From Minisyncoccota bacterium (GTDB lineage: Bacteria > Patescibacteriota > Minisyncoccia > Phycocordibacterales > DATDWN01), in the NCBI GenBank assembly GCA_041658985.1, contig JBAZZC010000002.1, positions 17,120-81,119 on the forward strand: a stretch of DNA of 64,000 nt, read 5' to 3'. Shown here piece after piece: positions 2,878 through 43,271 of the stretch (the first letter of the stretch is position 1; every line of letters starts with the position of its first letter). A program made the translations under genes and the position numbers. The notes beneath the pieces were generated by a model. It was not told the DNA's origin and did no database searches. It saw only the letters and a program-made list of their open reading frames with translations.

Positions 2878-3237
2878 ATGGACAAAAATGTGATGAAGGA
2901 TACCTGGGTACCACTTTTGCTGTTTGTATTGTTTTTTGTTATTGAGGTTTTTCTTAAACCTTCAGAATCAACACTTACGACCTTAATTGTTTTTATTACT
3001 TTTGTTATTTTAGTGTTAGAGGTTCATAAGCATGAACCAAAAGTTTTTCTCTTAGGACTTATTATGGGATTGTTTATTGAGGTTGTTTTAGGACTGGTTT
3101 CAAGACAGCAGTTCTGGGATGACGCTTCTCTTATGGGTGTTCCTACTTGGCTACCAATTATCTGGGGAATTGGTTTTGTAATTATTACCCGAGTTGGTAT
3201 GAAGATTGAGGGTGTAAGGTGGCCGAAGGGTCAATAA
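2878..3237 (+). CDS. Small membrane protein, about 120 aa, 3-4 TM helices.
   Basis: ORF with ATG at 2878 (MDKNVMKDTWVPLLLFVLFF...), hydrophobic throughout. Confidence 0.45.
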   Translation: MDKNVMKDTWVPLLLFVLFFVIEVFLKPSESTLTTLIVFITFVILVLEVHKHEPKVFLLGLIMGLFIEVVLGLVSRQQFWDDASLMGVPTWLPIIWGIGFVIITRVGMKIEGVRWPKGQ

Positions 3238-3408
3238 AATGGAAAAAGTCTGGATTTTTAAAACAATTTTTATAATCTCTACTGATTCTGGGTTAAAAAT
3301 AAAAAAGAAAGATAGAAATAAATTTAAAATATTGTTTGGGGTTGGTGGTGAAAACCATTGACATAGTTAGTATTTGTGATATCATTAAGAAAGAAATGGA
3401 GGGAAACC

Positions 3409-3648
3409 ATGGGCCTGACTTTTTCGGGTAATTGGAACAATCACGTTTTGGCGATGGAAGAGTGTTGTGCTGGTCGTGGGAGAATGGAGATCACTCTCTC
3501 CGACGACCAGGAGCGAAAGCTCCAAAACGGCGGACTTGTCTCCCTGAAGGAGCGAGTCTCGCCGAGTCTCGCAGAGTGTCTCTCCGTCCGTCCCCATTGG
3601 CTCTCCGCGCCAGCGGCGCTCGTGGTTGATGCGACGAAGTCGCGCTGA
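3409..3648 (+). CDS. GC-rich small protein, cassette copy 1 (about 80 aa); paralog of 3861..4034.
   Basis: GGAGGG SD 5 nt before the ATG. About 60% GC in a 33% GC context. Followed by its own terminator. The MEITLSDDQERKLQNGGLVSLKERVSPSLAECL segment aligns with MEIDIPTKEYRRLLDGGLDRLKRKCSPNLASRLL of the paralog. Confidence 0.45.
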   Translation: MGLTFSGNWNNHVLAMEECCAGRGRMEITLSDDQERKLQNGGLVSLKERVSPSLAECLSVRPHWLSAPAALVVDATKSR

Positions 3649-3688
3649 CCATAAGCACCTCGCACCTCGCACCTCGTACCTTCCCGAA

Positions 3689-3722
3689 GCCGCACCTCTG
3701 CACAGGTGCGGCTTTATTCTTT
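3689..3722 (+). terminator. Intrinsic terminator: GCCGCACCU-cugcac-AGGUGCGGC followed by UUUAUUCUUU.
   Basis: Perfect 9-bp GC stem plus a T-rich tail. Confidence 0.75.
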
Positions 3723-3860
3723 GAACATAAAAACTTATTGAAATAGATCATAAATGTGTTAAGGTACAAAGCGGAGGGCAAAACATTGCCAAACTAAAAG
3801 TTCTCTGGGGATTGGGACAGACTCATCCCTGTCATGGAGGAGTACGCAAACTCCAACAGG

Positions 3861-4034
3861 ATGATGGAAATTGATATTCCAACTAAGGAATATCGGCGAC
3901 TTCTCGACGGCGGGCTAGATAGGCTGAAGAGAAAGTGCTCGCCGAATCTGGCTTCTCGCCTGCTTTTGCAAGAGGCGTTTGTAGAGGCCAGTCCGTCTCT
4001 CCTAATCTTTCACAAACCACTGCCGACGAGGTAG
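3861..4034 (+). CDS. GC-rich small protein, cassette copy 2 (possibly RHH-like: short strand then helices); the leader ORF is frameshifted relative to copy 1.
   Basis: MMEIDIPTKEYRRLLDGGLDRLKRK... About 55% GC. It has its own terminator with the same stem as copy 1. Confidence 0.4.
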   Translation: MMEIDIPTKEYRRLLDGGLDRLKRKCSPNLASRLLLQEAFVEASPSLLIFHKPLPTR

Positions 4035-4043
4035 TCTTAAGGA

Positions 4044-4075
4044 GCCGCACCCGTGGAGAGGTGCGGCTTTGTTCG
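4044..4075 (+). terminator. Intrinsic terminator: GCCGCACC-cguggaga-GGUGCGGC followed by UUUGUUCG.
   Basis: 8-bp perfect stem; same stem sequence as the terminator at 3689. Confidence 0.7.
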
Positions 4076-4125
4076 TTGAAGATAAAATTAAGGATGTTAT
4101 AATTATTGTATTATTAATTAGCTTC

Positions 4126-4237
4126 ATCCAGGCACTAACTTAGTGAGATGATAACATTTCTGCTAATCATGATTGTACATCGATGAACACGTGTTAACTT
4201 TTTATATAAGTTGTACTCATTAAGTTAGTGCCTGGAT
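4126..4237 (+). repeat. Family A palindromic leader element, divergent copy A1. Terminal inverted repeats atccaggcactaacttagtgag / ctcattaagttagtgcctggat. It ends 9 nt before the ATG at 4247.
   Basis: 21-nt inverted arms with 1 mismatch. Confidence 0.6.
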
Positions 4238-4246
4238 AAATTTATT

Positions 4247-4618
4247 ATGGACATTACACTTTTAGTTGCGAAAATATTAGGTATCTATTTGGTGGTCAGT
4301 GGTTTGTTTCTCATGATAAAAGGGAAAACTATTCCACATCTACTTAGAGATTTTTTTGACCACCCAGCGGTAGTTTATTTGACAGGTATAATTTTAATTT
4401 TCCTGTCTTCTATGTATCTTATTCAATATAATATCTGGGATGGAACATGGCGAGCTCTGGTAACCCTATTTGCCTGGATTGTTATGTTAAAAGGTCTGGC
4501 TTACATTTTTATTCCACAGGCTTTAGGTGAAGCCTCCGTTAAGAAGTTTAAAGGATTGTTTGGTGTTTATGGTTTAATTGCTATAGTGATTGGTGTTTAT
4601 CTGTTTTTTTTAGGCTAA
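4247..4618 (+). CDS. Small integral membrane protein (123 aa, 4 TM).
   Basis: Hydrophobic ORF immediately after the A1 element. Confidence 0.5.
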   Translation: MDITLLVAKILGIYLVVSGLFLMIKGKTIPHLLRDFFDHPAVVYLTGIILIFLSSMYLIQYNIWDGTWRALVTLFAWIVMLKGLAYIFIPQALGEASVKKFKGLFGVYGLIAIVIGVYLFFLG

Positions 4619-4747
4619 ACGAGAAAATGTCAAAATAAAGCCAAAACAGTGTGGGGTTGTGACCTTGCATTGTTTTGTGTCTTAATGGTGTGGATAGTTT
4701 ACGGGTAATTACAAATGTTATATAATACATATATTAATATTAAATTA

Positions 4748-4884
4748 ATCCGCACACTAACATTGGTATTGTGTCTTCCGTTGCTACTGTAAGTTATCAA
4801 AGCAGAGTGATGGAAGATAAGGTAGTATAGATACTAAATCTAAACCAGACACAATTGCAACGATACCAATGTTAGTGTGCGGAT
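4748..4884 (+). repeat. Family A element A2: terminal inverted repeats ATCCGCACACTAACATTGGTAT / ATACCAATGTTAGTGTGCGGAT, with internal paired boxes tgtgtct/agacaca and cgttgc/gcaacg.
   Basis: 22-bp perfect terminal inverted repeats. It ends 10 nt before the ATG at 4895. Confidence 0.7.
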
Positions 4885-4894
4885 AAATAAAAAT

Positions 4895-5080
4895 ATGGAA
4901 ATGAAAGCTTTGTGTATGAGATGTAGAGATGCTAAAAACAAACCTACAATGCAGATTATGAATAGTCCTAAGGTTTCAGAGAAAAAGAATAGATATTCTG
5001 CAAAAGGTCAGTGTGCAAAGTGTGGTGGAAATATGTTTAAATTTTTATCAAAAGCAGATGCAGATAATTTGAAAAAATAG
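4895..5080 (+). CDS. Small zinc-ribbon protein, 61 aa (CxxC...CxxC).
   Basis: MEMKALCMRCRD...CAKCGG. The ORF track began it at the GTG at 4877, which lies inside the A2 arm, so the ATG at 4895 is preferred. Confidence 0.45.
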   Translation: MEMKALCMRCRDAKNKPTMQIMNSPKVSEKKNRYSAKGQCAKCGGNMFKFLSKADADNLKK

Positions 5081-5173
5081 AGACCGCTTTGTTTCTTGTG
5101 AGTAAAAAATGAATATGATAGAATACCTTAGACCTTAATTTTACTTGAAATAAGGAAAATTATTATTAACTTC

Positions 5174-5309
5174 ATCCGCACACTAACATTGGTATTGTGT
5201 CTCCTGTTGCTACTGTGAGTTATCAAACAGAGTAGTAGAAGATAAAAAGGTGTAGATACTAAACCTAAACCAGACACAATTGCAACGATACCAATGTTAG
5301 TGTGCGGAT
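5174..5309 (+). repeat. Family A element A3, near-identical to A2.
   Basis: Same terminal inverted repeats and internal boxes. It ends 15 nt before the ATG at 5325. Confidence 0.7.
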
Positions 5310-5324
5310 AAAAAAGATAAAGAT

Positions 5325-6029
5325 ATGGATAAGAACAAAATTATTTCTATCATAGTTGTAGTGGTTGTTGTTTTGGCTGTTGCTGGGTTTTTTATGTTTC
5401 GTGGAGACAAAATAAACAATCCAACAAGTGGTAATCCAGAAAGTGTGGCTACTGTAAACGGAGTAACCATTTCAAAAACAGTTTATGATGCACAACTTAC
5501 TTCAGCAATTTCTTCATACAAGACTCAAGGAATAGATGTAACAAAAGCAGATGAATTGGCTAAAATAAAGACTCAAGTTTTAAATAACCTCATAGACAAT
5601 GAATTAGTCAGTCAGGGTATTGTAAGCAGTGGAATTAAGGTTGATGACGCTGATATTGAAAAACAAATTCAAGATATCATAAAACAAACAGGAGGGGCAG
5701 ATAAGTTCCAAGTAGAACTTACTAAGGCCAATCTTACAGAGGCGCAACTTAGAGATAATATATCTAAGCAACTTACTCTTCAAAAATACTTAGAAGCTAA
5801 TGTAGATGTGAGCAAGATTACAGTAAGTGACACCGAAATTTCAGAGTTCTATAAACAATACAGTGACGCTCAAAAAACAGCTTCTTCTACCACAAAAGTT
5901 CCAGCACTTAAGGAATTAAGTGACCAAATAAAACAACAAATCACATCAAATAAGCAACAAGCTTTAATTAATGATTTTGTTGCTTCCTTACGAAGTAAAG
6001 CTCAAATAACAACATCTACGGCTTTATAG
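5325..6029 (+). CDS. Membrane-anchored SurA N-terminal-domain-like chaperone/PPIase-domain protein.
   Basis: N-terminal TM helix, then VATVNGVTISKTVYDAQL..., typical of the SurA_N/PpiD-like family. Confidence 0.45.
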   Translation: MDKNKIISIIVVVVVVLAVAGFFMFRGDKINNPTSGNPESVATVNGVTISKTVYDAQLTSAISSYKTQGIDVTKADELAKIKTQVLNNLIDNELVSQGIVSSGIKVDDADIEKQIQDIIKQTGGADKFQVELTKANLTEAQLRDNISKQLTLQKYLEANVDVSKITVSDTEISEFYKQYSDAQKTASSTTKVPALKELSDQIKQQITSNKQQALINDFVASLRSKAQITTSTAL

Positions 6030-12108: not shown

Positions 12109-12264
12109 ATGAGTAACCATCCCGTAGTAGTCACACTGGCTGTTCTTGCGATAGCACAGGCCATACCACTCATCGTGGTGGTTGCCCTGTCGTTTTTCCC
12201 ATGGGCAAAGAAGACACCGTCAGATTTCTTTTGTGATTTGTGGGAACTGATCACGAAAGGATGA
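12109..12264 (+). CDS. Small hydrophobic peptide, 51 aa, unannotated; GC-richer than its surroundings.
   Basis: AAAGGA SD then ATG. MSNHPVVVTLAVLAIAQAIPLIVVVALSFFPWAKKTPSDFFCDLWELITKG. Confidence 0.35.
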   Translation: MSNHPVVVTLAVLAIAQAIPLIVVVALSFFPWAKKTPSDFFCDLWELITKG

Positions 12265-12268
12265 TGAG

Positions 12269-12403
12269 ATGAAGCTGGTCTTCAGCGCCAAGAGAGCGAT
12301 TTGGCTTTTCGTCATTATCATGTTGCTCGGTTGTTGGCTGTCAACAACTGACACAATTGTGGGACAGCTCCTGCGATTGTTTATGTGGCTTGCTCTTCTC
12401 TAG
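12269..12403 (+). CDS. Second small hydrophobic peptide, 44 aa, immediately downstream.
   Basis: AAAGGAtgatgag then ATG. MKLVFSAKRAIWLFVIIMLLGCWLSTTDTIVGQLLRLFMWLALL. Confidence 0.3.
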   Translation: MKLVFSAKRAIWLFVIIMLLGCWLSTTDTIVGQLLRLFMWLALL

Positions 12404-20021: not shown

Positions 20022-20090
20022 TCATAAATCTTTTTTTTCATCACAATCTTTTCAGAGCAACCTTAAGAAATTCCAGCGAATTTCTTAAGG

Positions 20091-20173
20091 CCAGTCCTCA
20101 CCCTCTAGCTGTCAAGAGCCCTCGCTTCGCTCAGGTCTATGACAGCACCATGCTAGAGGGTTGCGGGGTCTCT
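20091..20173 (+). repeat. Conserved ~85-nt stem-loop element, copy 1: outer stem ccctctagc/gctagaggg, inner stem TGTCA/TGACA around AGAGCCCTCGCTTCGCTCAGGTCTA, then ttgcggggtctc. Preceded by a 12-bp hairpin at 20061-20090.
   Basis: Aligns along its full length with the copies at 35396 and 39691; the outer stems covary. Confidence 0.65.
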
Positions 20174-20208
20174 GAAAAAATTATGATTCAACAAGATTTA
20201 TTCTTTGT

Positions 20209-28514: not shown

Positions 28515-28535
28515 GGCACTTTGTGAACACATTTT

Positions 28536-28669
28536 ATCCGCACACTAACTTTAGTATTATCTCTCCGGTTGCTTCTATGGTTGGTTAGATAAAGTAACAG
28601 TAAAAAATAAGTGTGAATAGTAAATCTGTGTTTGACATAATGCAACGATATTAAAGTTAGTGTGCGGAT
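28536..28669 (+). repeat. Family A element A4 (variant arms ATCCGCACACTAACTTTAGTAT / ATATTAAAGTTAGTGTGCGGAT).
   Basis: Terminal inverted repeats with compensating changes on both arms relative to A2/A3. Confidence 0.65.
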
Positions 28670-28711
28670 GAATTTGCATAAACAAACTCATTTACGTTAC
28701 AATAAGGAGGA

Positions 28712-28820
28712 AATGAATCCCGTACGAAGTTTATGTATTATCGTTGTAATGGGATGAATGTTTAATTATTAACTAATTTAAGTATAAGGTGTACATAACA
28801 CATTTACTTCGTACGGGATG
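28712..28820 (+). promoter_or_regulatory. Family B leader, copy B1: AAGGAGG SD, a 14-codon uORF (MNPVRSLCIIVVMG, 28713-28757), and a long hairpin whose 3' arm (acttcgtacgggAUGa) contains the start codon of the gene at 28818.
   Basis: 14-bp perfect complementarity between uORF codons 2-6 (AAUCCCGUACGAAGU) and the region including the downstream AUG. Confidence 0.55.
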
Positions 28821-30197
28821 AAAAAAAAGATTGTTCAAGATGTTATTCCTCCTAAAAAAACTATTCGCAATGTAGAATTGTTGTATAGAGCAAAACGTTC
28901 CGAGAAAATACCCAAAGAGGTAGTAAAACAAAATATTCCAGTTATACCAGAAGTTTCCGAATCAAATTCAACATCAAACACCGAAACCTTTTCCGAAACT
29001 GAAAATTTTTCTTATAAATATGAGTACGATGAACCGGTAAGACATTCAAAAAAAATCTTGTATGTTTCTGTTGTCTTGTTTGTCCTGGCCTTATCTTTTG
29101 GTATATCAGCATTATTTAAAAGTGCAGAAATACGCATTATACCCAGGAGTGAGATTAGCTCTATAGATGAGAATTTTAAAGCCCTAAAAAATCTTTCGAC
29201 AAACGGCTTAGGTTTTCAGACCGTGACAACCACAAAAGATATTGAAAAGACAGTATCGGCAACAGACGAAGAACAAGTTGAAAAGAAGGCCATTGGCAAA
29301 ATTGTTGTTTATAATAATTATAGTGTTCAACCACAGGCACTAGTAAAGACAACAAGATTTGAAACCCCAGATGGGCTTGTCTTTCGGACAGTAGAGGACA
29401 TAACTGTCCCGGGGATACAAATCAAGAGTGATAAGGCTGTTGCTGGAAGCATAGAGGTTGGAGTAGAAGCAGATAAGCCCGGACCAAAATATAATATTGG
29501 GTTGAAAGATTTTTCTATTGCCGGTTTCAAGGGTACTCCAAAATATACAAAGATTTATGGTAGGTCAAGAACAGAAATGTCTGGCGGTTTTGTGGGAACA
29601 CAAAAGACCGTAAGTAAGGAAACTATAAATAAAATTGATGAAGAAATAAAGGAACTTCTAAAAACTTCTCTTTCAAAAGATATTATTTCGCAGATACCAG
29701 AAAATTTTGTGTTATACCAAAACAGTACTTCCTTTAAATTTGAACCAATTACTCAAATCAATGTCACCACAGAGGAGAGTGGTACTACAAACACAATAAT
29801 TTTAAAGAAAAAAGGTTCTATAAGTGCCATTATCTTTGATAAAGGTTCTCTTTCTAGGGCAATAGTTAGTAAGATTTTACCTGATGTGGCAAGTGATATA
29901 ATTAAAATAACCAATCTTGAGAGTTTAAATTTTACTTTTCAATCAGAAACTCAATTTAATCCAAATACTGATACTTTTCTTAATTTTAACCTAAAAGGAG
30001 AAGCTAATTTCCAATGGGTTTTTGACGAAAATAAACTCAAATTTGAGCTCTTAGGAATGTCAAAAAATAATGCAATAACTATAATCAGTAAATACGACAC
30101 AATAAAAGAAGCAAAAATTGAAACCCATCCTTTCTGGAATAAGACCATTCCAAAAGATTCTAATAAAGTTACACTTATAAACACTCTGGCAAAATAA
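28818..30197 (+). CDS. Hypothetical secreted/membrane-anchored protein, 459 aa.
   Basis: ORF with a TM helix near residues 80-100; no recognised motif. Confidence 0.4.
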   Translation: MKKKIVQDVIPPKKTIRNVELLYRAKRSEKIPKEVVKQNIPVIPEVSESNSTSNTETFSETENFSYKYEYDEPVRHSKKILYVSVVLFVLALSFGISALFKSAEIRIIPRSEISSIDENFKALKNLSTNGLGFQTVTTTKDIEKTVSATDEEQVEKKAIGKIVVYNNYSVQPQALVKTTRFETPDGLVFRTVEDITVPGIQIKSDKAVAGSIEVGVEADKPGPKYNIGLKDFSIAGFKGTPKYTKIYGRSRTEMSGGFVGTQKTVSKETINKIDEEIKELLKTSLSKDIISQIPENFVLYQNSTSFKFEPITQINVTTEESGTTNTIILKKKGSISAIIFDKGSLSRAIVSKILPDVASDIIKITNLESLNFTFQSETQFNPNTDTFLNFNLKGEANFQWVFDENKLKFELLGMSKNNAITIISKYDTIKEAKIETHPFWNKTIPKDSNKVTLINTLAK

Positions 30198-30758: not shown

Positions 30759-30799
30759 CGAAATAGCCAATGTTCTGCTACTATGTAGCTCGTTGATTA

Positions 30800-30937
30800 A
30801 TCCGAACACCAACTTTAGTATTGTGTCTTCCGTTGCTTCTTTTTATAAGTAATTAGCGGATTCAGTCAAGGTATAGATTTGGTTAGTAAATCTATATTTT
30901 GGACACAGTGCAACGATACTAAAGTTGGTGTTCGGAT
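30800..30937 (+). repeat. Family A element A5 (variant arms ATCCGAACACCAACTTTAGTAT / ATACTAAAGTTGGTGTTCGGAT); ends 9 nt before the infA ATG.
   Basis: Terminal inverted repeats with double compensatory changes. Confidence 0.65.
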
Positions 30938-30946
30938 AAAATTGTA

Positions 30947-31168: not shown

Positions 31169-31171
31169 CAA

Positions 31172-31279
31172 AATGAATCCCGTACGAAGTTTATGTATAT
31201 AGTCGTAAAGGGATAGGGGTTTAATTATTAGTTAATTCAAGTATAGAGTGTAGAAACACATTTACTTCGTAACGGGATG
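31172..31279 (+). promoter_or_regulatory. Family B leader, copy B2: a 9-codon uORF (MNPVRSLCI, 31173-31202) begins 5 nt after the infA stop. The hairpin 3' arm (acttcgtaacgggAUGa) contains the rpmJ start codon.
   Basis: Same architecture and near-identical sequence to B1. Confidence 0.55.
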
Positions 31280-31393
31280 AAAGTAAAATCATCAGTAAAA
31301 AAGATTTGTTCCCAGTGTAAAGTAGTCCGCAGAAAGGGCTATGTGTATGTAATATGTAAGGCTAACGCTCGACACAAACAGCGTCAAGGATAG
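31277..31393 (+). CDS. rpmJ: Ribosomal protein L36 (not in the supplied ORF track).
   Basis: [38 protein letters not shown], 38 aa. Confidence 0.85.
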
Positions 31394-34801: not shown

Positions 34802-35200
34802 ATGGAAAAAAATTTAGAAAAATATATAGAGGCAGTAGGAAGGAGAAAAACTTCTGTTTCTCGTGTTCGTATTACACCAGCTTCCAAAATAACATTTTTA
34901 GTTAATGATAAAGAATTAGAAAAATATTTTTCAACAAAAGAGATGCAGGCTATTGTTAAACAGCCACTTGTAGATGTAAAGGAAAAATTTAAAATTACTG
35001 CAAAAATAAAGGGTGGGGGAATACATTCACAAGCGGAAAGTTTGAGACATGGAATTGCTCGGGCTCTTGTAAAAAATGACTTAGAACTTAGAAAAGGACT
35101 AAAAAAAGCTGGATTTTTAAAGCGAGACCCTCGTTCAAAAGAAAGACGAAAATTCGGATTGAAGAAAGCAAGAAAAGCCCCTCAATGGTCTAAGCGTTAA
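34802..35200 (+). CDS. rpsI: Ribosomal protein S9.
   Basis: ...GGGIHSQAESLRHGIARAL....RDPRSKERRKFGLKKARKAPQWSKR. Confidence 0.9.
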   Translation: MEKNLEKYIEAVGRRKTSVSRVRITPASKITFLVNDKELEKYFSTKEMQAIVKQPLVDVKEKFKITAKIKGGGIHSQAESLRHGIARALVKNDLELRKGLKKAGFLKRDPRSKERRKFGLKKARKAPQWSKR

Positions 35201-35395
35201 TATTAGATATACTCAATATATTGAACTTTTGTGTATACGCGTTAGCTTTTCGCAGTCCCGTACTGAGCTTTGCTCTAGTACTGGGACAAGCAAGGCTCCT
35301 CAGTGGTCAAAACGTTAGTTTTCTTTTTCACAAAATCTCTTTCTCGTCATATCTTTTGAGAGACCGCTCATCCGCCCCTGCCGGCGGATTTGCTT

Positions 35396-35476
35396 AATCC
35401 TCGGCCATGACTTGTCAAGAGCCTTCGCTTCACTCAGGTCTATGACAAGACCATGCTCATGGCCTGCGGAGTCTCC
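35396..35476 (+). repeat. Conserved ~85-nt stem-loop element, copy 2 (outer stem ggccatga/tcatggcc; inner stem CTTGTCA/TGACAAG).
   Basis: Aligns with the copies at 20091 and 39691. Confidence 0.65.
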
Positions 35477-35506
35477 CAAAAGATACGACTTCGACGAGAT
35501 TTTGTT

Positions 35507-35528
35507 TTGCTACGATATATCGTAGCAA
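35507..35528. repeat. 22-bp perfect palindrome TTGCTACGATAT|ATCGTAGCAA.
   Basis: Read directly. Confidence 0.7.
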
Positions 35529-35587
35529 ATTAAGAAGTCTGTAGTTAAGCATGTAATTACTTATATCATATGTCATAACCGATATAT

Positions 35588-35615
35588 AATTTGGTACAAT
35601 ATATTGTACCAAATT
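35588..35615. repeat. 28-bp perfect palindrome AATTTGGTACAATA|TATTGTACCAAATT; a second copy lies at 36116-36143.
   Basis: Read directly; central ATAT. Confidence 0.75.
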
Positions 35616-35642
35616 AACAATAAGGTTAAGATAATTTAGAAT

Positions 35643-35673
35643 AGGAAAACCGCCAGTCGTGCTGGGCTGGCGG
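35643..35673 (-). terminator. Minus-strand intrinsic terminator CCGCCAG-cccagcacga-CUGGCGG followed by UUUUCC, serving the small ORF 35704..35955.
   Basis: 7-bp GC stem plus a T-run on the minus strand; near-identical copy at 36172-36204. Confidence 0.6.
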
Positions 35674-35703
35674 AATTCCGCACAGCGCCACGATGGCGGT
35701 GTG

Positions 35704-35955
35704 TTACTGTTCAAAAACAATTGAACCGTTGCCCCATTCCATTCTTGACCAGCCTGCGGCCAAGTAACGAGAGGTTAGCTTACGCTCCATCTCTGCACCT
35801 GGCCTCTTACGCTGGAATGTTAGGGCGATTGTTCTGTCGTGAGCGAAATCATTTCGGGCTACCCTAAGAGCCTCGTCAATGATACGTTCCCAACCCAGCT
35901 CCTCTAAGAGTTGGCTTGGTAGAGTGGAAAATAGTCGACTTGGGCCTACTGCCAT
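35704..35955 (-). CDS. GC-rich small protein, cassette II copy 1 (83 aa; C-terminal ...YLAAGWSRMEWGNGSIVFEQ).
   Basis: SD AGGAAAGAAGGTG then ATG; about 55% GC; own terminator; paralog at 36235..36474. Confidence 0.45.
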   Translation of the reverse strand: MAVGPSRLFSTLPSQLLEELGWERIIDEALRVARNDFAHDRTIALTFQRKRPGAEMERKLTSRYLAAGWSRMEWGNGSIVFEQ

Positions 35956-36115
35956 TACACACCTTCTTTCCTCATATAAAATATCATTTTCAAATCCATT
36001 GTCAACTAATTTTGAGTATTTAAAATTTCATATTAAACCATATTTCAATCTATGTTATAGCATAGATTATACAATCTACCACATTATAAGTAGTGAATTT
36101 AATTTAGTTGGATAT

Positions 36116-36143
36116 AATTTGGTACAGTATATTGTACCAAATT
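36116..36143. repeat. Second copy of the 28-bp palindrome (AATTTGGTACAGTATATTGTACCAAATT, 1 mismatch).
   Basis: Read directly. Confidence 0.75.
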
Positions 36144-36171
36144 GAAATCATATATAAATAATTTTGGCATA

Positions 36172-36204
36172 GGAAAAACCGCCAGTCGTGCTGGGCTGGC
36201 GGAA
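36172..36204 (-). terminator. Minus-strand intrinsic terminator, duplicate of the one at 35643-35673.
   Basis: Same CCGCCAG...CUGGCGG stem plus T-run. Confidence 0.6.
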
Positions 36205-36234
36205 TTCCGCACAGCGCCACGATGGCGGTTGTTG

Positions 36235-36474
36235 TCACTTGCTGAAGATGAGAGTTCCGTGATGACGGGTGACATTTGACCAACCCGTCGCTCTGTAACG
36301 GCGAATCAGTTCAGTGGTCACTCTTTGAGACGTGATCTGTCCCACGTGAACCTCGTACTGCTTGTTGTTCAAACCAAAACTGAGCATAAGTGCCCTGTCG
36401 ATCTCAGCCTCGATTTGATTGACTTCGAGCGTTTCCTCGGACGTCAATTCAAGATCCTTCGGTCCCAGTGCCAT
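36235..36474 (-). CDS. GC-rich small protein, cassette II copy 2 (79 aa; C-terminal ...RRYRATGWSNVTRHHGTLIFSK).
   Basis: TTGTTATAAT -10 box and AAGAAGGAGGTG SD before the ATG. Shares its C-terminal GW...(I/L)(V/I)F motif with the 35704 paralog. Confidence 0.45.
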   Translation of the reverse strand: MALGPKDLELTSEETLEVNQIEAEIDRALMLSFGLNNKQYEVHVGQITSQRVTTELIRRYRATGWSNVTRHHGTLIFSK

Positions 36475-36660
36475 GTGGCACCTCCTTCTTGTTGAATTAT
36501 AACATAGTTAGATTGTCTCGTCAAATAGTTTTGAAACTTCAAAAATTTATGTTAAAATAGCGTTATTATTTGAGTTTTGTTTGAAAATTTAGTAATTGGT
36601 TATTGTTTAGAAATTAGGTCAATTAGAAATTAGAAATTTGACTCTAAAATAAAGTAAAAC

Positions 36661-37257
36661 ATGGATACTAATGATGATAATGACAAAAAAATAGACCCCG
36701 AAGTAGAAATAGATACCGACCCTGGGGATGATGTGGTGTTTGAGGATAACACAGAAGTCACAGGGGCAGATTACAAGGCCAAAACAGACAAACTTCGTGC
36801 AAAAATAAAGGAATTAGAGAAGAAGAACGCAGAACTTTTGGATGGTTGGCAGAGAGATAAGGCAGATTTCATTAACGCCAGAAAAAGAGATGAGGAGCAG
36901 AAAATGGAGTTTTTGAAGTTCTCAAAAGCAGATATTATTGCTGAACTTCTTGCAGTTTTGGATTCATTTGAATCAGCTTTCAAAAATAAAGAGGCCTGGG
37001 AAAAAGCAGATAAAAACTGGAGAATGGGGGTTGAATACATTCACACACAGCTTATGAATATAATGACCCAAAACGGTTTAGCTGTTATAAATCCGATTGG
37101 AGAAAGGTACGACCACAACAGAGATGAGGCAGTAGAAACGGTAAAAGTTGACGACGAAAAAGATAATGATAAAATATTGGATGTGGTGCGAGTCGGATAT
37201 GAATTACACGGGAAAGAAATACGTGCACCAAAAGTTCGTGTTGGGCATTATTCGTAG
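36661..37257 (+). CDS. grpE: Nucleotide exchange factor GrpE.
   Basis: Coiled-coil N-terminus then ADFINARKR...AELLAVLDSFE...VGY.L.G.EIRAPKV. Confidence 0.85.
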   Translation: MDTNDDNDKKIDPEVEIDTDPGDDVVFEDNTEVTGADYKAKTDKLRAKIKELEKKNAELLDGWQRDKADFINARKRDEEQKMEFLKFSKADIIAELLAVLDSFESAFKNKEAWEKADKNWRMGVEYIHTQLMNIMTQNGLAVINPIGERYDHNRDEAVETVKVDDEKDNDKILDVVRVGYELHGKEIRAPKVRVGHYS

Positions 37258-37300
37258 CCATTCGTAGATTCGCATAATTTGTATATTTGTATCATATAAA

Positions 37301-37600
37301 ATGAACCAACTAACTAAGCCAATAGGTGAATATGTTGAAAGAATAGTCCGAGATAAGAACGGACAGCTGGTTCGTGCTACATTTTGCGTGTATGAGTGCG
37401 ACGGCCACATAAAAGCTCGCCTCATAAATGCTGAAATAATAAATGAATATTTACAAAAAACCGAGATACTAAAACTTGGCGGTTTAACCGCCAAATGGGT
37501 AAGGAACTATGTTGAATATGTTGGAGCAACAATTTCTCCATACTTTAGTTTAAATACATTATACTTCTCTGGCTCTAAGCCACGTGCACCTACAATTTAA
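37301..37600 (+). CDS. Hypothetical 99-aa protein inserted between grpE and dnaK, flanked by ATTCGTA heptamer repeats.
   Basis: ORF only; no recognised motif. Confidence 0.35.
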   Translation: MNQLTKPIGEYVERIVRDKNGQLVRATFCVYECDGHIKARLINAEIINEYLQKTEILKLGGLTAKWVRNYVEYVGATISPYFSLNTLYFSGSKPRAPTI

Positions 37601-37736
37601 GATACGAATGTAAAATTCAGGGTAATTGGCGAATGTCAACGAAAAATAATTAGTACAAATTCGTATACATTCGTAACTACCCCGATTTATTTTTCGTATC
37701 TTTTATATCTCATTATTTATTAATCTTATTAAATTT

Positions 37737-39635
37737 ATGTCTAAAACAATTGGAATAGACCTAGGAACAACGAACTCCGCCGTCGCCATTATGGAGGCGG
37801 GGAATCCCAAAATATTAGAAAATGCCGAAGGTGCTAGAACAACGCCATCTATTATTGCCATATCAAAAACTGGTGAAAGATTGGTTGGGCTTTTGGCAAA
37901 AAGACAGGCCGTAACAAACCCAAAGAACACAATCTTTGGAATCAAGAGATTTATTGGTCACACCTTTGACGACGAGGGTGTTCAGAAAGATAAGGCTGTT
38001 GTGCCCTTTGAGGTTCTTAAATCGGGAACAGGTGGAGTGAAAGTAAAAATGGCAGATAAAGAATACACGCCAGAGGAAATATCAGCCATGATTCTTTCAA
38101 AGATAAAAGCTGATGTTGAAGCAAAAATCGGCGAGAAGGTTTCTGATGCAATTATTACAGTGCCCGCATACTTTAACGATTCACAAAGACAAGCCACAAA
38201 AGACGCGGGAGCTATTGCTGGTTTGAATGTTTTGAGAATTATAAACGAACCTACGGCCGCAGCATTGGCTTATGGTTTTGACAAAGGCAAAAAAGAAGAA
38301 AAAATAGTTGTCTTTGATTTTGGTGGGGGAACATTTGATGTTTCCGTGCTTGAGGTGGGAGATGCTGTTGTAGAAGTGAAATCAACAGATGGAGATTCTC
38401 ACATGGGAGGTAAAGATATTGACCAAAAAATAATTAACTTTTTGGCTGATGAATTCAAAAAAGAGTCTGGTATTGATTTGAGAACAGATACTCTTGCACT
38501 TCAGAGACTTGATGAGGCAGCAGAAAAAGCGAAGATTGAACTTTCTACTGCAATGGAATCGGAAATAAATATTCCATTTATCACATCAGATAGCTCTGGT
38601 CCAAAACACTTACTTATTAAATTAAGTAGAGCAAAACTTGAGGAGCTAACTACCGAATTCATAGACAGGGCAATGTCTATTACAAAAAGAGCCATGGAGG
38701 CTTCTGGATTTGCAATATCTGACATTCATGAAGTTATCCTTGTCGGTGGTCAAACTCGTATGCCAAAAATGGCTGACAAAGTTAAGGAGTACTTTGGTAA
38801 GGAACCTAATAAGTCAATTAACCCAGACGAAGTTGTGGCTCTCGGAGCGGCTATACAGGGGGGTATTATGTCAGGGGACGTGAAAGATGTCCTACTTCTT
38901 GATGTTATACCGCTCTCGCTTGGTATAGAGACAATGGGAGGTGTTAGTACGAAGCTTGTGGAAAGAAATACAACCATTCCAGCCTCTAGGTCACAGGTTT
39001 TTTCAACCGCAGCCGATAATCAAACATCTGTGGAGATTCATATTGTCCAAGGTGAAAGAGCCATGGCAAATGATAACAAGTCTCTGGGGCGGTTCATTCT
39101 AGACGGGATTCCACCAGCACCACGAGGCATGCCACAAATTGAGGTTTTGTTTGATGTGGACGCAAATGGTATCTTGTCAGTTAAGGCAAAAGACAAAGCT
39201 ACAAGCAAGGAGCAATCAATTCGCATTGAAGCTCGTTCAGGTCTCTCAAAAGAAGATATTGAAAAAATGCAAAAGGATGCCGAGGCTCATGCGTCTGACG
39301 ACTTGAAGAAAAAAGATTTGGTTGAAGCGAAAAATATAGGTGAGCAACTTATTTACACAGCCGAGAAATCACTTCGTGATGCTGGTGACAAAGTTCCTAC
39401 AGAGTTACGAGCCTCAATTGAAAATAAAATTACAGATTTAAAGAAAGCAAATGGAGGTGAGGATATGGAGCAAATCAAAAAAACTACAACCGAGCTTTCT
39501 ACAGAGCTTTCTAAAGTAGGGGAGATAATAAACAAAGCAGCTCAAGAAGCAAATAAAACAGCTGAGGCGGGAGCTACGACAGCAGGGGAGGAGAAAGTTA
39601 GGGATGCGGATTTTGAGGAGAAGAAGGCGGAATAG
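37737..39635 (+). CDS. dnaK: Chaperone DnaK (Hsp70).
   Basis: [13 protein letters not shown]..., [10 protein letters not shown], 632 aa. Confidence 0.95.
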
Positions 39636-39690
39636 TTTTTAAATAATAACTCCTCAAAAACACTCGGCTTCTTCCTGCGGAAGCCTCGTT

Positions 39691-39775
39691 CAGTCCTCGA
39701 CCCCTCGTTGTCAAGAGCCTTCACTTCGTTCAGGTCTATGACAACACCAAGCTCGGGGTCTGCGGATGTTTCTCG
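39691..39775 (+). repeat. Conserved ~85-nt stem-loop element, copy 3 (outer stem gacccc/ggggtc; inner stem GTTGTCA/TGACAAC).
   Basis: Aligns with the copies at 20091 and 35396. Confidence 0.65.
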
Positions 39776-39825
39776 GGGGTATTATTCTAAAAACTATTTT
39801 AGAGAGTGAGAAATGATAAATACGC

Positions 39826-39870
39826 AAAAACCCACCAACGAAAGTAGACTAGTGCGTCCGATCCCAGATG
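39826..39870 (-). terminator. Minus-strand terminator (degenerate copy of the CCCACCAAC...GUUGGUGGG UUUUUGCG hairpin).
   Basis: One of three near-identical about 45-nt sequences (39826, 40113, 40462), each after a small minus-strand ORF. Confidence 0.5.
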
Positions 39871-39877
39871 ATGGGTG

Positions 39878-40048
39878 TTACAGATGTTTCTTTTGGAAGA
39901 GTGTCCAAGCCTCAACAAACTCCTGTTCAGTCAGGTGACTGTTCACCATTCTGAAGTTCGCCTTTATGCTTCGATTGATCTCTGACCAAATAAAGCGACA
40001 GACGATGGTTACTCCCATGAAAAATAGTCCGAGCATGAACCATTCCAC
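39878..40048 (-). CDS. Small single-TM protein, about 56 aa; cassette III copy a.
   Basis: AGGAGG SD about 6 nt before a GTG start; hydrophobic N-terminus; own terminator. Confidence 0.35.
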   Translation of the reverse strand: MEWFMLGLFFMGVTIVCRFIWSEINRSIKANFRMVNSHLTEQEFVEAWTLFQKKHL

Positions 40049-40112
40049 GATATTACCTCCTCTTAGGATAATAAAATATATTGATAATATAGCCAAGTGC
40101 AATAATTAAAAA

Positions 40113-40165
40113 AACGCAAAAACCCACCAACGAAAGTGGACTAGTGCGTCCAGTGCTGGTGGGGC
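40113..40165 (-). terminator. Minus-strand intrinsic terminator CCCCACCAGC...GUUGGUGGG followed by UUUUUGCG.
   Basis: 9-bp stem (1 G:U) plus T5. Confidence 0.65.
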
Positions 40166-40169
40166 AGTT

Positions 40170-40409
40170 TCAGGACTTGGGAAGATTGCGGATGTTGCAG
40201 GTTGTATATCCCATCACAATCTCAGCCTTGTACAGGTCATCTCGCTTTTTGAGTTGCCAGATCTTTGCTCCCAAATGGATCCACCCAAGATCGAATAGAT
40301 GTTTCTCAGCGCTGACGATACTCCTGAGACGCCCGCAATCACGAAGGTGAACGAAAATGAGACCATTGTACCTGCTTACTCGAATTGTCCAAAACCAATT
40401 ATGTGGCAT
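40170..40409 (-). CDS. GC-rich small protein, 79 aa; cassette III copy b (contains the FWTIRVS motif).
   Basis: ACCAGGAGGACAGTTCC then ATG; paralog of 40517..40792. Confidence 0.45.
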   Translation of the reverse strand: MPHNWFWTIRVSRYNGLIFVHLRDCGRLRSIVSAEKHLFDLGWIHLGAKIWQLKKRDDLYKAEIVMGYTTCNIRNLPKS

Positions 40410-40461
40410 GGAACTGTCCTCCTGGTACTGATAATACATTAGAAATAATGAATGTCAATTA

Positions 40462-40510
40462 CGCAAAAACCCACCAACGAAAGTGGACATTTGCGTCCGT
40501 GTTGGTGGGG
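40462..40510 (-). terminator. Minus-strand intrinsic terminator CCCCACCAAC-loop-GUUGGUGGG followed by UUUUUGCG.
   Basis: Perfect 9-10-bp stem plus T5. Confidence 0.7.
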
Positions 40511-40516
40511 TATGAT

Positions 40517-40792
40517 TCAAGCCACTTGCTTTGGGAGTTCAGAGATGTCGAGTTGATGTCGAACCTCGATAAGGATAGCACTATACACGATGCTACCGAT
40601 TTCGAGTCGCCACGGCCTCAGGACTGGTTTATTAGTGTACACACCATCAGCTTTCTGCCAGCCGTTGGTCTTTAGAAGATTTGTGGCTGAATCAAGATGG
40701 TTTTCGTCAAACAACCCGAAATCTCCATGTCGATAACGCAGACTACCCGTTATCATCGACACACGAATTGTGTAAAACTTCGTGGCTTTCAT
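40517..40792 (-). CDS. GC-rich small protein, 91 aa; cassette III copy c (contains the FYTIRVS motif).
   Basis: GGAGG SD 7 nt before the ATG. Aligns with the 40170 paralog at F.TIRVS....G....H..D.G and a GW motif. Confidence 0.45.
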   Translation of the reverse strand: MKATKFYTIRVSMITGSLRYRHGDFGLFDENHLDSATNLLKTNGWQKADGVYTNKPVLRPWRLEIGSIVYSAILIEVRHQLDISELPKQVA

Positions 40793-41008
40793 AGAATGGC
40801 CTCCAACTGGAAATCATATCAGATAATTGTTGAATGTCAAGTATACTTATCATAAAAAAATCATATAATAAGCACTACAATAGAACTTTCAGATTTAAGC
40901 CAAGATCAAGGCGGGATGAGAAAATGTGAGGAGCCTTACTTGTCGTAAGGTGACGAGAATTTTTGAAATTCCAACGCAGATATTGGCCAAATGTGGAAGT
41001 TATAACAT

Positions 41009-43245: not shown

Positions 43246-43271
43246 GTATTTATTTTAATCATTATATAGAT

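Follow-up and report, generated by a model that had tools for sequence, protein, structure and literature searches.

What kind of genetic element places small, GC-rich genes side by side, each closed by a terminator nearly identical to that of its tandem neighbour, in an AT-rich patescibacterial genome and in part next to essential genes? The question is raised by three places in the 64,000-nucleotide stretch of a Minisyncoccota contig analysed here (hereafter, the window): locus A at 3.4–4.1 kb on the plus strand, and loci B and C at 35.6–36.5 kb and 39.8–40.8 kb on the minus strand, which together hold seven small ORFs of 56–91 aa. All three loci are present where a preliminary description of this DNA had placed them. 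One more such locus, absent from that description, lies at 12109..12403 on the plus strand (locus D), where two hydrophobic small ORFs of 51 and 44 aa (D1 and D2, the eighth and ninth of the set) are found between ychF and a cupin gene. We consider it probable, albeit with considerable reservation, that these loci consist of moron-like autonomous mini-gene expression units, which are gained and lost at recombination hotspots with core genes on either side.

Anatomy and composition of the units

Promoters and terminators were predicted by consensus scans and folding, and on these grounds each unit appears to comprise a single ORF, a promoter dedicated to it and a factor-independent terminator. 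The best sigma70-like matches of each region sit exactly 5' of A1, B1, C1 and C2 (11/12), B2 (10/12) and C3 (9/12). A Shine–Dalgarno (SD) sequence of the GGAGG type is located 6–9 nt 5' of every start, the one preceding B2 being weaker (GAAGGTG), so that the strong GGAGG site initially ascribed to every ORF holds with this one exception.

At locus A (plus strand), the promoter-like site of A1 (3358..3385; TTGACA-16-TATCAT, TG-extended), the top score within 3200–5400, precedes the 79-aa A1 ORF (3409..3648; SD GGAGGG at 3398–3403), which is followed by A-type terminator 1 (3686..3724), a GC-rich 12-bp stem with a T-run (−21.5 kcal/mol, z −6.95). Next to it lies A2 (3798..4034), a degenerate A1 paralogue with an SD at 3773–3778, a TTG at 3786 and an in-frame TAA at 3795–3797, and then A-type terminator 2 (4041..4078; −20.1 kcal/mol). 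The frame of A2 is open from the ATG at 3834 (3834–4034, 66 aa), but homology to A1 extends 5' of this ATG and across the in-frame TAA; A2 is a disrupted copy. Several frames are open at locus A, on both strands. In its neighbourhood, a large serine recombinase gene (76–1473) and a tRNA-Ala gene are found 2 kb away, and no phage genes were seen.

Locus B (minus strand) begins with the promoter-like site of B1 (36496..36524; TTGACG-17-TATAAT), the 79-aa B1 ORF (36235..36474) and the first copy of the B-type terminator (36171..36229), in which a bulged 13-bp outer stem encloses an inner hairpin and precedes a U-run (−34 kcal/mol). Downstream of this terminator there is a 28-bp palindrome of 11-6-11 layout (36116..36143), followed by the promoter-like site of B2 (35978..36005), the 83-aa B2 ORF (35704..35955), the second terminator copy (35642..35700) and two further 28-bp palindromes (35588–35615 and 35504–35531). 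The array ends with copy b of a structured repeat, D4 (35331..35504), adjoining the rpsI stop codon.

Locus C, on the same strand, contains three units: the promoter-like site of C1 (40813..40840; TTGACA-16-TATGAT), the 91-aa C1 ORF (40517..40792) and C-type terminator copy 1 (40457..40508), which is abutted by the promoter-like site of C2 (40431..40458); the 79-aa C2 ORF (40170..40409) and terminator copy 2 (40110..40162); and the promoter-like site of C3 (40068..40096), the 56-aa C3 ORF (39878..40048), which starts with GTG and encodes one TM helix, and terminator copy 3 (39818..39862). In two relatives, L003 and L285, the first cassette shares the conserved block that lies upstream at the C3 promoter-like site. 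Copy c of the D4 repeat (39628..39800) ends this array and adjoins the dnaK stop codon.

The composition of the units departs from that of their neighbours (GC 43–58% versus 35.9 ± 3.5%). Recomputation yielded 58% for A1, 50% for A2, B1 and B2, 46% for C1 and C2, and 43% for C3; D1 and D2 are likewise GC-rich (47–48%). The ORFs are therefore GC-rich as first described, but do not reach 55–60% throughout, and the window stands at 35.7% instead of 33%. The excess resides mainly in GC3, which amounts to 0.45–0.65 compared to 0.29 ± 0.06 in 54 long ORFs (z 2.8–6.1). Other contigs of the same organism are 99.97–100% identical, with zero differences inside the cassettes.

Coding status and protein families

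Similarity between A1 and A2 (E 2e-12 at the protein level) is confined to the proposed frame, with E 1e-12 as opposed to at least 1e-3 in the remaining frames, and a frame-specific protein comparison of B1 with its orthologue in L003 gave E 6e-15. Since the similarity is frame-specific at the protein level while the DNA is 42–51% identical, both family A and family B encode proteins. B1 and B2 are also paralogous (E 5e-5), both being matched by one family profile. Paralogy within the loci, as originally proposed, thus holds for A1/A2 and B1/B2; by contrast, C1 and C2 are weakly similar (29% identity, tblastx E 0.002) and C3 bears no relationship to either. The loci had also been said to lie outside standard annotation. 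This holds only in part: A1 and A2 were called by the JGI and Logan pipelines, and C1 and C2 by Logan, but all four are absent from the ENA contig annotation, where C3 is uncalled as well; B1 and B2 are annotated by NCBI as hypothetical proteins.

The A, B, C1 and C2 proteins, which make up the majority of the cassette proteins, are soluble and alpha/beta. AF2 models of C1, a beta-hairpin/helix/beta-hairpin fold, and of B1 reach pLDDT values of 80.9 and 82.6, respectively. C3, D1, D2 and several cassette ORFs of relatives encode single- or double-TM peptides of 34–85 aa. Searches of Pfam, PHROG, NCBIfam and PADLOC with the nine small proteins and the B-family alignment returned nothing significant, and none of the small ORFs matches a core gene; an ordinary core-gene identity, which would have spoken against the original reading, was not found. 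Family A is an orphan: neither the word-seeded protein search, which returned self matches only, nor a pattern scan of IMG/VR produced relatives of A1 outside its own genome.

B1 belongs to an unnamed family of ~80-aa proteins. Used alone as query in a word-seeded protein search, B1 matched only itself, whereas a full HMMER profile search recovered 10 additional ~80-aa proteins with the invariant residues M1, A2, P5, E22, D26, R59, Y60 and W65. A sequence profile search of the PDB with the B family gave no match, and IMG/VR protein-pattern scans for A, B and C yielded no confirmed relative. Outside this genome, the B family is encoded mostly on phage or prophage contigs of unrelated hosts, with GC contents ranging from 31 to 51%. 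For instance, in contig P0020, the B-family gene adjoins a portal gene, with the capsid gene beyond a 495-aa gene; in P0012, it lies within a prophage/ICE-like region with portal/Mu_F, primase, Replic_Relax and TrwB genes, alone on the opposite strand and with 39% GC inside a 61% GC locus; and in P0027, it is found in huge-phage-like contigs along with T4 Rnl2, CCA-adding enzyme and GmrSD genes. Further B-family contigs are phage- or plasmid-like, as judged by gene content. This context fits a lateral origin of the B family, the only family for which lateral transfer is shown directly.

Terminators, palindromes and structured repeats

The observation that each ORF has its own terminator, nearly identical to that of its tandem neighbour, was reproduced: the two B-type copies are identical at 55/55 positions, the three C-type copies have a 24-mer in common with at most 1 mismatch, and the A-type pair shares AGCCGCACC..GGTGCGGCTTT. 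Dinucleotide shuffles gave zero matches to the terminator repeats. Their computed folding energies lie between −18 and −34 kcal/mol, with z from −3.1 to −7.6. In the B type, assessed by folding each copy, the inner hairpin is variable in sequence and its pairing is kept (GCGG/CCGC, GGGG/CCCC, ACGG/CCGU and GACGG/CCGUC). In the C type, the 3' arm, GUUGGUGGG, is invariant, whereas three changes affect the 5' arm: the single change of C2 and one of the two in C3 are transitions that give G-U pairs, and the other C3 change produces a U-U mismatch. The loops, the ACUUUC internal loop and the UUUUUGCGUA tail are conserved beyond the needs of a plain terminator.

The same terminators recur behind unrelated genes. 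The B type is located 3' of at least four unrelated ORF families in eight genomes and the C type 3' of six different ORFs in three genomes. Across 2.6 Mb of loci, B-type elements occur at site B only, plus one at site C in L210, and are limited to the clade with a GrpE identity of about 78% or more. A scan of viral contigs for the C-type terminator gave 0 matches; the 15-mer of the B-type terminator used in the same kind of scan is too short to be informative, matching by chance, in GC-rich phages only. The 28-bp palindromes are perfect, occur beside cassettes only, after B-type units, and their arms co-vary between species. D4 and other GC-rich intergenic elements of the genome are clearly structured and non-coding; D4 and the E-type element represent two structured intergenic repeat families absent from Rfam, which, at the gathering threshold, matched only tRNA-Ala in the whole window and, in E-value scans of 3300–5400 and 35150–41000, gave noise only.

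Occupancy of the intervals in related genomes

Loci B and C, to which the comparison of occupancy pertains, are antisense to their flanks, B between rpsI and grpE and C between dnaK and dnaJ, and the rpsI-grpE-dnaK-dnaJ synteny is kept in about 170 loci. In close relatives, the spacers at the two sites range from 50–116 bp up to 0.9–1.5 kb. Compared to 1.3–1.5 kb in the window, the sites are empty (50–116 bp) in L005 (site C), L006, L008 and L212, and they hold other ORFs in L003, L004, L005 (site B), L007, L009, L210, L213, L214 and L285, amounting to at least eight ORF families across the two intervals in about 15 close relatives. Variable occupancy in related genomes, proposed at the outset as a check, was accordingly seen at both loci. 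Some occupants are shared, including a Zn-ribbon ORF in L003, L210 and probably L213, and a 2-TM ORF in L004 and L005, and copies that have probably decayed are represented by A2, a remnant in L211 and an early stop in L285. In L210, about 150 nt are nearly identical between sites B and C, indicative of intragenomic exchange.

Synonymous sites are saturated between genomes sharing the B- and C-type terminators: fourfold sites of grpE, dnaK, rpsI and dnaJ are only 42–52% identical between the window and L003. Between the same two genomes, the terminators are 93–100% identical, compared to 42–51% for the ORFs. The terminators and, in part, the promoters constitute a conserved frame, and the intervening ORFs differ or evolve very fast. 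B1 and its counterpart in L003 are positional orthologues with a common promoter block and terminator (61% identity over 401 nt); given this orthologue, the array must be old, and vertically inherited, in at least some of its parts. Both orthologues remain GC-rich at 51% nucleotide identity, and such a persistent GC3 excess is not explained by simple recent import. The original view of laterally acquired cassettes is supported with respect to modularity, deviant GC content, duplication, varying occupancy at loci B and C and the mainly phage-borne nature of family B, but recent acquisition as the source of the GC excess found no support.

The boundaries of the arrays show a distribution of their own. 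The E-type end element occurs in the closest relative, L003, and in the distant L009 and L010, and D4 in the window, L004, L005, L007 and L210; the element of L011 is E-type by eye, yet matches the D4 model with 45 bits, and its assignment is uncertain. At 35287–35317 lies a remnant of the 3' end of rpsI, which is 93.5% identical to the real rpsI 3' end of L003, compared to 84% for the resident end. This remnant and the patchy distribution of D4 and E-type elements may hint at homologous recombination in the flanking core genes.

Comparison with known systems

The units share several properties with phage morons, as defined from the ‘more DNA’ elements of the HK97/HK022 type (PMC3594210): a predicted transcription unit that is self-contained, from a private promoter to a factor-independent terminator, insertion (at loci B and C) between genes that are adjacent in related genomes, a GC content unlike that of the neighbours, and a cargo of small accessory ORFs, with family B itself being phage-borne. 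Unlike phage morons, however, loci B and C reside outside a prophage, on a CPR chromosome and flanked by rpsI, grpE, dnaK and dnaJ, and the units form tandem arrays with one strongly conserved terminator type per locus and are maintained across species-level divergence. Fast turnover confined to few intervals that lack an integrase or transposase parallels the core-gene HGT hotspots, for which double homologous recombination in the flanks, favouring transformable bacteria, has been proposed (Oliveira, Touchon & Rocha 2017, PMC5635113). By contrast, the intervals described here are tiny (0.05–1.5 kb), contain single mini-genes instead of islands and keep a conserved promoter/terminator frame. 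A literature search found no description of core-gene-flanked hotspots of this kind in CPR bacteria.

With chromosomal integrons, the loci have in common tandem, co-oriented small and mostly ORFan genes, contents that vary between relatives and a conserved imperfect-palindrome element after each gene, homogeneous within an array. However, IntI, attI and a Pc promoter were not found here, and the hairpins precede T-runs, act like RNA terminators and belong to three unrelated types. Acinetobacter plasmids carry pdif (Xer) modules, in which 28-bp sites of 11-6-11 layout bound small self-contained gene modules. The palindromes of locus B have the same length and layout and also lie beside small gene units, but they are perfect, follow B-type units only, and the inverted XerC/D-XerD/C pairing of pdif modules was not seen. 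Finally, C3, D1 and D2, being hydrophobic, 44–56 aa long, tandem and intergenic, are reminiscent of type I toxin–antitoxin loci, although no antisense RNA gene was identified, and the A, B, C1 and C2 products are soluble alpha/beta proteins.

Alternative explanations

That the ORFs are spurious, their frames being left open by the scarcity of stop codons in GC-rich structured non-coding RNAs or repeats, could be suspected from the multiple open frames on both strands of locus A, the structured, non-coding nature of D4-like elements and the fact that A1/A2 and C1–C3 are uncalled in the ENA contig; it is nevertheless hardly credible in view of the frame-specific amino acid similarity at 42–51% DNA identity, a conserved protein family with invariant residues, a correctly spaced SD before every start, the confident AF2 folds of C1 and B1 and the lack of Rfam matches. 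It is very unlikely that the units are toxin–antitoxin or anti-phage defence mini-systems, with C3, D1 and D2 as type I toxins, for example, or with type II pairs: superinfection exclusion is frequent among morons (PMC3594210) and the single- or double-TM peptides of the window and several relatives would suit such a role, but PADLOC, Pfam, NCBIfam and PHROG gave zero matches, the units are monocistronic rather than paired toxin and antitoxin genes, and no antisense RNA partner was identified. The toxin–antitoxin-like modules suggested in the preliminary description accordingly found no support, and type II systems in particular were rejected, there being neither bicistronic pairs nor a Pfam or PADLOC match. 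Were the units instead old resident genes of the clade, evolving very fast and differentially lost from an ancestral multi-gene array, lateral movement would not be needed, and selection on composition and terminators would make the cassette appearance a by-product. The positional orthology of B1 with its shared promoter block and terminator, the recurrence of the Zn-ribbon and 2-TM ORFs, the clade-restricted and positionally constant B-type terminator and a GC3 excess that survives saturation are in line with this view. We still judge it unlikely, given the B-family members in phages and prophages of unrelated hosts across a GC range from 31 to 51%, the patchy distribution of D4 and E-type elements relative to GrpE identity, the empty sites in close relatives, and the rpsI relic that resembles the L003 gene end more than the resident one.

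A further possibility, which we regard as distinctly unlikely, is a site-specific cassette platform akin to integrons or dif modules, whereby a recombinase would excise and insert ORF-plus-site units at the conserved hairpins or 28-bp palindromes. Exchange of this kind would account for a common 3' element downstream of ORFs that are unrelated from one genome to another, a situation found in three to eight genomes. The arrays are tandem and co-oriented, and their cargo consists mostly of small ORFans, as does that of chromosomal integrons. Moreover, the C-type stem ends in ..CCAAC/GTTGG.., partially resembling the R''/R' cores of attC, the palindromes are Xer-site-like, co-vary in their arms between species and occur only beside cassettes, site C of L210 holds a B-type module as well, and the large serine recombinase is encoded 2 kb from locus A. 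However, the gene calls for the 64-kb window include no tyrosine recombinase or IntI-like gene, the three loci have three hairpin types, of which B and A are devoid of AAC/GTT cores, and each unit has its own predicted promoter, whereas integron cassettes are usually promoterless. In addition, the substitutions in the C-type stem are largely those predicted by selection on an RNA hairpin, B-type elements are restricted, within 2.6 Mb of loci, to site B apart from L210, the C-type terminator is unmatched in viral contigs, and no similar palindrome is found at the switch in GC skew and gene orientation, the expected position of dif. An integron array was thus rejected (no match of the Phage_integrase type in Pfam among the called genes; own promoters with 9–11/12), as was attC identity, given that the C type displays only AAC/GTT (5/7 positions) and the B and A types none; the dif-site idea was examined and is unsupported. 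It is equally doubtful that the hairpins and/or palindromes serve as recombination sites for a cassette-exchange system of Patescibacteria that needs no integrase or has so far escaped recognition; if so, this would be a miniature gene-capture platform, with promoter–ORF–terminator units swapped at slots beside chaperone and ribosomal operons and with D4 and E-type elements, both multicopy and structured, as array boundaries or mobilisable ends. A diversity-generating retroelement was also rejected, as there is no reverse transcriptase among the called genes and the paralogues differ over their whole length.

Proposed turnover of moron-like units and its implications

Under the reading that we prefer, moron-like units turning over at core-gene-flanked hotspots, the chromosome of this Zambryskibacteria-like member of the Patescibacteria would offer permissive intergenic hotspots at rpsI|grpE and dnaK|dnaJ. 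The repeated promoter/terminator modules may allow arrays to expand, through tandem duplication or unequal crossing-over, and to contract, through recombination between the same repeats, with copies also decaying; new alleles could pass among relatives when incoming DNA recombines homologously with the conserved genes on either side. In many HGT hotspots without mobile elements, the neighbouring core genes show recombination (PMC5635113). The com genes are conserved throughout CPR, and Saccharibacteria are naturally transformable with flanking homology (PMC10633639). Selection presumably maintains the terminators as RNA hairpins, given that transcription of the units heads, in antisense orientation, towards essential genes. 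The cassette proteins are most likely phage-derived accessory proteins, such as modulators of superinfection or host interaction.

Patescibacteria have very small genomes with very few recognisable mobile elements, and how they gain and test genes is poorly understood. Fixed slots beside essential operons, which are empty or refilled in sister genomes, would make gene flux in this group concrete and open to testing. The findings further bring to light an uncharacterised family of ~80-aa small proteins, found mostly on phage contigs and marked by invariant residues, and three strong predicted terminator modules which, together with the compact promoters, are possible parts for CPR genetics. The persistent GC3 excess of the units may, in turn, offer a natural setting in which to test for GC-biased gene conversion against an AT-rich genomic background.

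GC-rich small ORFs with individual predicted expression signals

Seven small ORFs are present at the three loci given in the preliminary description: A1 (3409–3648, plus strand, 58% GC) and A2 (3834–4034, plus, 50%) at locus A; B1 (36474–36235) and B2 (35955–35704), both on the minus strand with 50% GC, at locus B; and C1 (40792–40517, 46%), C2 (40409–40170, 46%) and C3 (40048–39878, 43%), all on the minus strand, at locus C, with C3 encoding a one-transmembrane (TM) peptide. The GC content of 55%–60% attributed to them holds for A1 only, and that of the window is 35.7% rather than 33%. The deviation resides mainly in third codon positions (GC3 of 0.45–0.65 versus 0.29±0.06 for 54 long ORFs). 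A GGAGG-type Shine–Dalgarno (SD) sequence precedes each ORF, as proposed, being weaker for B2, and the best matches in a consensus scan, predicted sigma70-like sites, lie exactly 5′ of the units (11/12 for A1, B1, C1 and C2, 10/12 for B2 and 9/12 for C3). A fourth locus, D (12109–12403, plus), located between ychF and a cupin gene, contains two small GC-rich ORFs for hydrophobic peptides (51 and 44 aa), followed by a GC-rich hairpin. The sole long ORF in the window matching the cassettes in compositional deviance is the 3′ part of an ABC_tran gene (63563–63985, minus; 51% GC, GC3 0.55; 626 aa in the full contig).

Variable cargo at conserved sites

The window is 99.97%–100% identical to a 236-kb metagenomic contig, the proteins of which are labelled ‘Candidatus Paceibacterota’ at NCBI; at the species level, Ca. 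Zambryskibacteria RIFOXYD1_FULL_40_13 (L003; GrpE 93%) is closest. Locus B occupies the rpsI–grpE spacer (site B) and locus C the dnaK–dnaJ spacer (site C), both on the strand opposite to the flanking genes. Locus A is surrounded by small membrane-protein genes. A large ORF for a serine recombinase (76–1473, plus) lies 2 kb away, overlaps tRNA-Ala (1411–1484, minus) and is followed by an 82-aa GIY-YIG gene (1470–1718, minus); the region 76–1718 may represent the border of an integrated element.

Among about 170 loci around grpE, the rpsI-grpE-dnaK-dnaJ order is conserved and the spacers at sites B and C are not. Spacers of 50–116 bp are found in L006, L008, L212 and L005 (site C), and minus-strand units comprising a predicted promoter, SD, GC-rich small ORF and terminator in the window, L003, L004, L005 (site B), L007, L009, L210, L213, L214 and L285. 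Eight genomes have the B-type terminator (ACCGCCAWCGTGGC...GGCGGTTTT) at one common site, where it is preceded by at least four unrelated ORF families, namely, the B family (window and L003), a Zn-ribbon family (L003, L210 and probably L213), a 2-TM family (L004 and L005) and a DnaJ-zinc-finger-like ORF (L214); in L211, it is preceded by an ORF remnant. Elsewhere in 2.6 Mb of loci, this element was not found, except for one copy at site C of L210. Similarly, across the window, L003 and L285, six different ORFs are followed by the C-type terminator. The dnaJ-proximal edge of the dnaK–dnaJ spacer carries ACTTGAC, a −35-like block on the minus strand, in the window (~40813–40845), L005, L006, L008–L010 and others. 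It is kept even in empty spacers, in L005 and L006 being aimed directly into the 3′ end of dnaK. The cassettes may exploit it, either as an antisense promoter of ancestral origin or as a component of dnaJ regulation.

Conservation of the terminators

The near-identity of neighbouring terminators was borne out: the B copies are identical at 55/55 positions, the three C copies have a common 24-mer with at most one mismatch, and the A copies share AGCCGCACC..GGTGCGGCTTT. In dinucleotide shuffles, the A-, B- and C-type patterns never arise. Every ORF is followed by a long hairpin and a T-run, with folding energies of −18 to −34 kcal/mol and z-scores of −3.1 to −7.6. Between the window and L003, identity at 4-fold degenerate sites of grpE, dnaK, rpsI and dnaJ is 42%–52%, that is, these sites are essentially saturated, and the ORFs between the terminators retain 42%–51% DNA identity. 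The terminators are nevertheless 92.8%–96.8% (B-type, across 62–69 nt) and 93%–100% (C-type) identical, so that either strong constraint or recent exchange has to be invoked. The substitution pattern appears to favour constraint as a minus-strand RNA hairpin. The inner hairpin of the B-type varies in sequence with pairing kept (GCGG/CCGC, GGGG/CCCC, ACGG/CCGU and GACGG/CCGUC). The C-type has an invariant 3′ arm, GUUGGUGGG; of three changes in its 5′ arm, two are transitions yielding G-U pairs and one, in C3, produces a U-U mismatch. Invariance extends to the loops, to ACUUUC (an internal loop) and to the UUUUUGCGUA tail, which is more than a plain terminator would require.

Origin of the cargo

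B-family homologues are encoded by Paceibacterota, one alphaproteobacterial MAG and contigs labelled DPANN archaea, mostly in phage-like contexts. In one, the gene adjoins a portal gene, with the capsid gene further on, past a 495-aa gene. In a prophage/ICE-like region (portal/Mu_F, primase, Replic_Relax, methyltransferase, TrwB), it stands alone on the opposite strand, with 39% GC versus 61% for the locus and its own terminator. Other copies reside in huge-phage-like contigs (T4 Rnl2, CCA-adding enzyme, GmrSD, intein) and in further contigs that are phage- or plasmid-like by gene content; one more context is uninformative. The phage copies are usually operonic, with GC matching that of the phage; the B-type terminator is therefore an attribute of the bacterial slot rather than of the gene. 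No relatives of family A were detected by a word-seeded protein search or an IMG/VR pattern scan, and none of family C in IMG/VR.

Structured repeats and neighbouring features

Both cassette arrays (B and C) end with D4, a multicopy element of ~175 nt absent from Rfam, which matched no part of the cassette loci. The window carries three copies (20025–20201, 35331–35504 and 39628–39800, all minus), and others occur in L004, L005 (two), L006, L007, L009, L011, L210 (three), L213 and L285, always antisense to, and immediately beyond the 3′ end of, a gene on the plus strand (mltG, rpsI, grpE or dnaK). In D4, a long stem encloses three inner helices, and CAUCCGCA and GAGGAC are conserved in single-stranded stretches; compensatory changes affect 26 of 48 pairs (8 copies). 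The element could be a small RNA or a repeat of the MITE/REP-like kind. In L003 (5900–6060 and 10100–10240), L009 and L010 (site B), the position that D4 takes in the window is filled by a different structured repeat, the E-type (TTAGAAAACAACGACGA...GATTGTTTTCTTGA closing stem); the element at site B of L011 is E-type by eye, yet also matches the D4 model.

Four copies of a ~155-nt long-hairpin element (4733–4890, 5159–5315, 28521–28673 and 30785–30941; ends ATCCGCACACTAACATTGGTAT / ATACCAATGTTAGTGTGCGGAT) drew only chance miRNA-like matches from Rfam; it is a candidate 5′-UTR leader, because each of the first two copies is flanked by a promoter-like site on one side and a start codon on the other, the genes being a DUF5679-like 59-aa ORF and a SurA_N gene. 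A 113-nt direct repeat is shared by two intergenic regions (28711–28823 and 31171–31282; 86% identity, first 28 nt identical). Three tandem paralogous genes (42145–45150; 366, 234 and 397 aa) with blocks 78%–93% identical, short internal repeats and no Pfam matches look like a rapidly rearranging surface-protein-like family. The probable replication terminus is at ~46400–47000, where the cumulative GC skew peaks and gene orientation switches from plus to minus; two strong hairpins (46496–46532 and 46533–46581) and a GC-richer stretch without Rfam match lie in its 640-bp gap.

Alternative explanations

GC-rich DNA is open in many frames, locus A in six, and the frames were therefore tested directly. 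The similarity between A1 and A2 is confined to the proposed frame (tblastx E of 1e-12, other frames ≥1e-3; 44% DNA identity), B1 matches the same-place ORF of L003 (E of 6e-15), and a B1+B2 profile recovered ten more ~80-aa proteins in a full HMMER search. The B-family alignment (13 sequences; MALxPxDLxLT...E..ID..L...RRYxAAGW) has invariant M1, A2, P5, E22, D26, R59, Y60 and W65, and the AlphaFold models of B1 (pLDDT 82.6; alpha-beta-alpha-beta-beta) and C1 (pLDDT 80.9; beta-hairpin, helix, beta-hairpin) are both graded confident. That the ORFs are spurious is thus hardly credible. The paralogy suggested for each locus holds for A1/A2 and for B1/B2, which form one family; C1/C2 are weakly similar (29% identity) and C3 is unrelated. 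A2 looks like a decaying copy, because it has an in-frame TAA four codons past the SD-proximal TTG and lacks a good promoter. The cassette proteins have no matches in Pfam, PHROGs, NCBIfam or PADLOC, and toxin–antitoxin or defence roles are very unlikely.

The most interesting alternative, a site-specific system akin to integrons or dif modules, is suggested by one type of 3′ element behind unrelated ORFs and by perfect 28-bp palindromes (11-6-11; consensus AATTTNNTACR-ATATAT-YGTANNAAATT), which occur solely beside cassette terminators (window 35504–35531, 35588–35615 and 36116–36143; L005 791–818; L214 4996–5023; variants in L210), have arms co-varying between species and could be hairpins, operators or Xer-like sites. 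However, no IntI-type gene is present among the called genes of the 64 kb, the hairpins are of three unrelated types, each unit has its own predicted promoter, the substitution pattern is RNA-type and a similar site is absent from the probable replication terminus, where no dif-like site was recognised, making such a system quite improbable. As to vertical inheritance, L003 has an orthologue of B1 at the same position, with the promoter block and terminator in common, and both ORFs are GC-rich at 51% DNA identity; hence, the GC3 excess is maintained, not merely imported, and a simple ‘recent HGT’ account does not fit. GC-biased gene conversion at a recombination hotspot, mRNA selection or repeated re-import are candidate causes. 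A purely vertical origin is, all the same, unlikely. In L210, ~150 nt are nearly identical between sites B and C, which shows intragenomic exchange. The last 31 nt of rpsI recur as a duplicated relic (35287–35317; also in L211 and L214), which still encodes APQWSKR* 87 nt past the real stop. This relic aligns with the L003 rpsI 3′ end at 93.5%, the figure for the resident end against that of L003 being 84%, and is the presumable footprint of an old insertion or recombination at this gene end. Combined with the patchiness of end elements (D4 or E-type) relative to GrpE identity and signs of decay (A2, the L211 remnant and an early stop in L285), these features hint at, but do not prove, exchange between lineages.

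Discussion

Four features define phage morons: a promoter and a terminator of their own, a position between genes that are adjacent elsewhere, deviant GC and residence in a prophage (PMC3594210). The cassettes match the first three, the promoters and terminators being predicted, but lie outside any prophage. The intervals at sites B and C also behave like the mobile-element-free HGT hotspots of Oliveira et al., for which the proposed route of turnover is double homologous recombination in the core genes on either side, above all where the bacterium is transformable (PMC5635113). Across CPR, the com genes are conserved, and Saccharibacteria have been shown to take up and integrate DNA by transformation when it carries flanking homology (PMC10633639). 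The repeated promoter/terminator modules would serve as substrates for tandem duplication (B1/B2, A1/A2 and the C array) and also for deletion, and arrays under such birth-and-death dynamics would fit the decay, the L210 exchange, the rpsI relic and the patchy end elements.

Collectively, the cassettes are best filed as known kinds, morons and HGT hotspots, in a new form, and not as a categorically new system. The finding goes beyond a catalogue of hypothetical genes: in a CPR genome, hotspots flanked by core genes contain conserved slots for expression, in which the mini-gene cargo varies and includes one phage-associated family, and structured repeats absent from Rfam border them.
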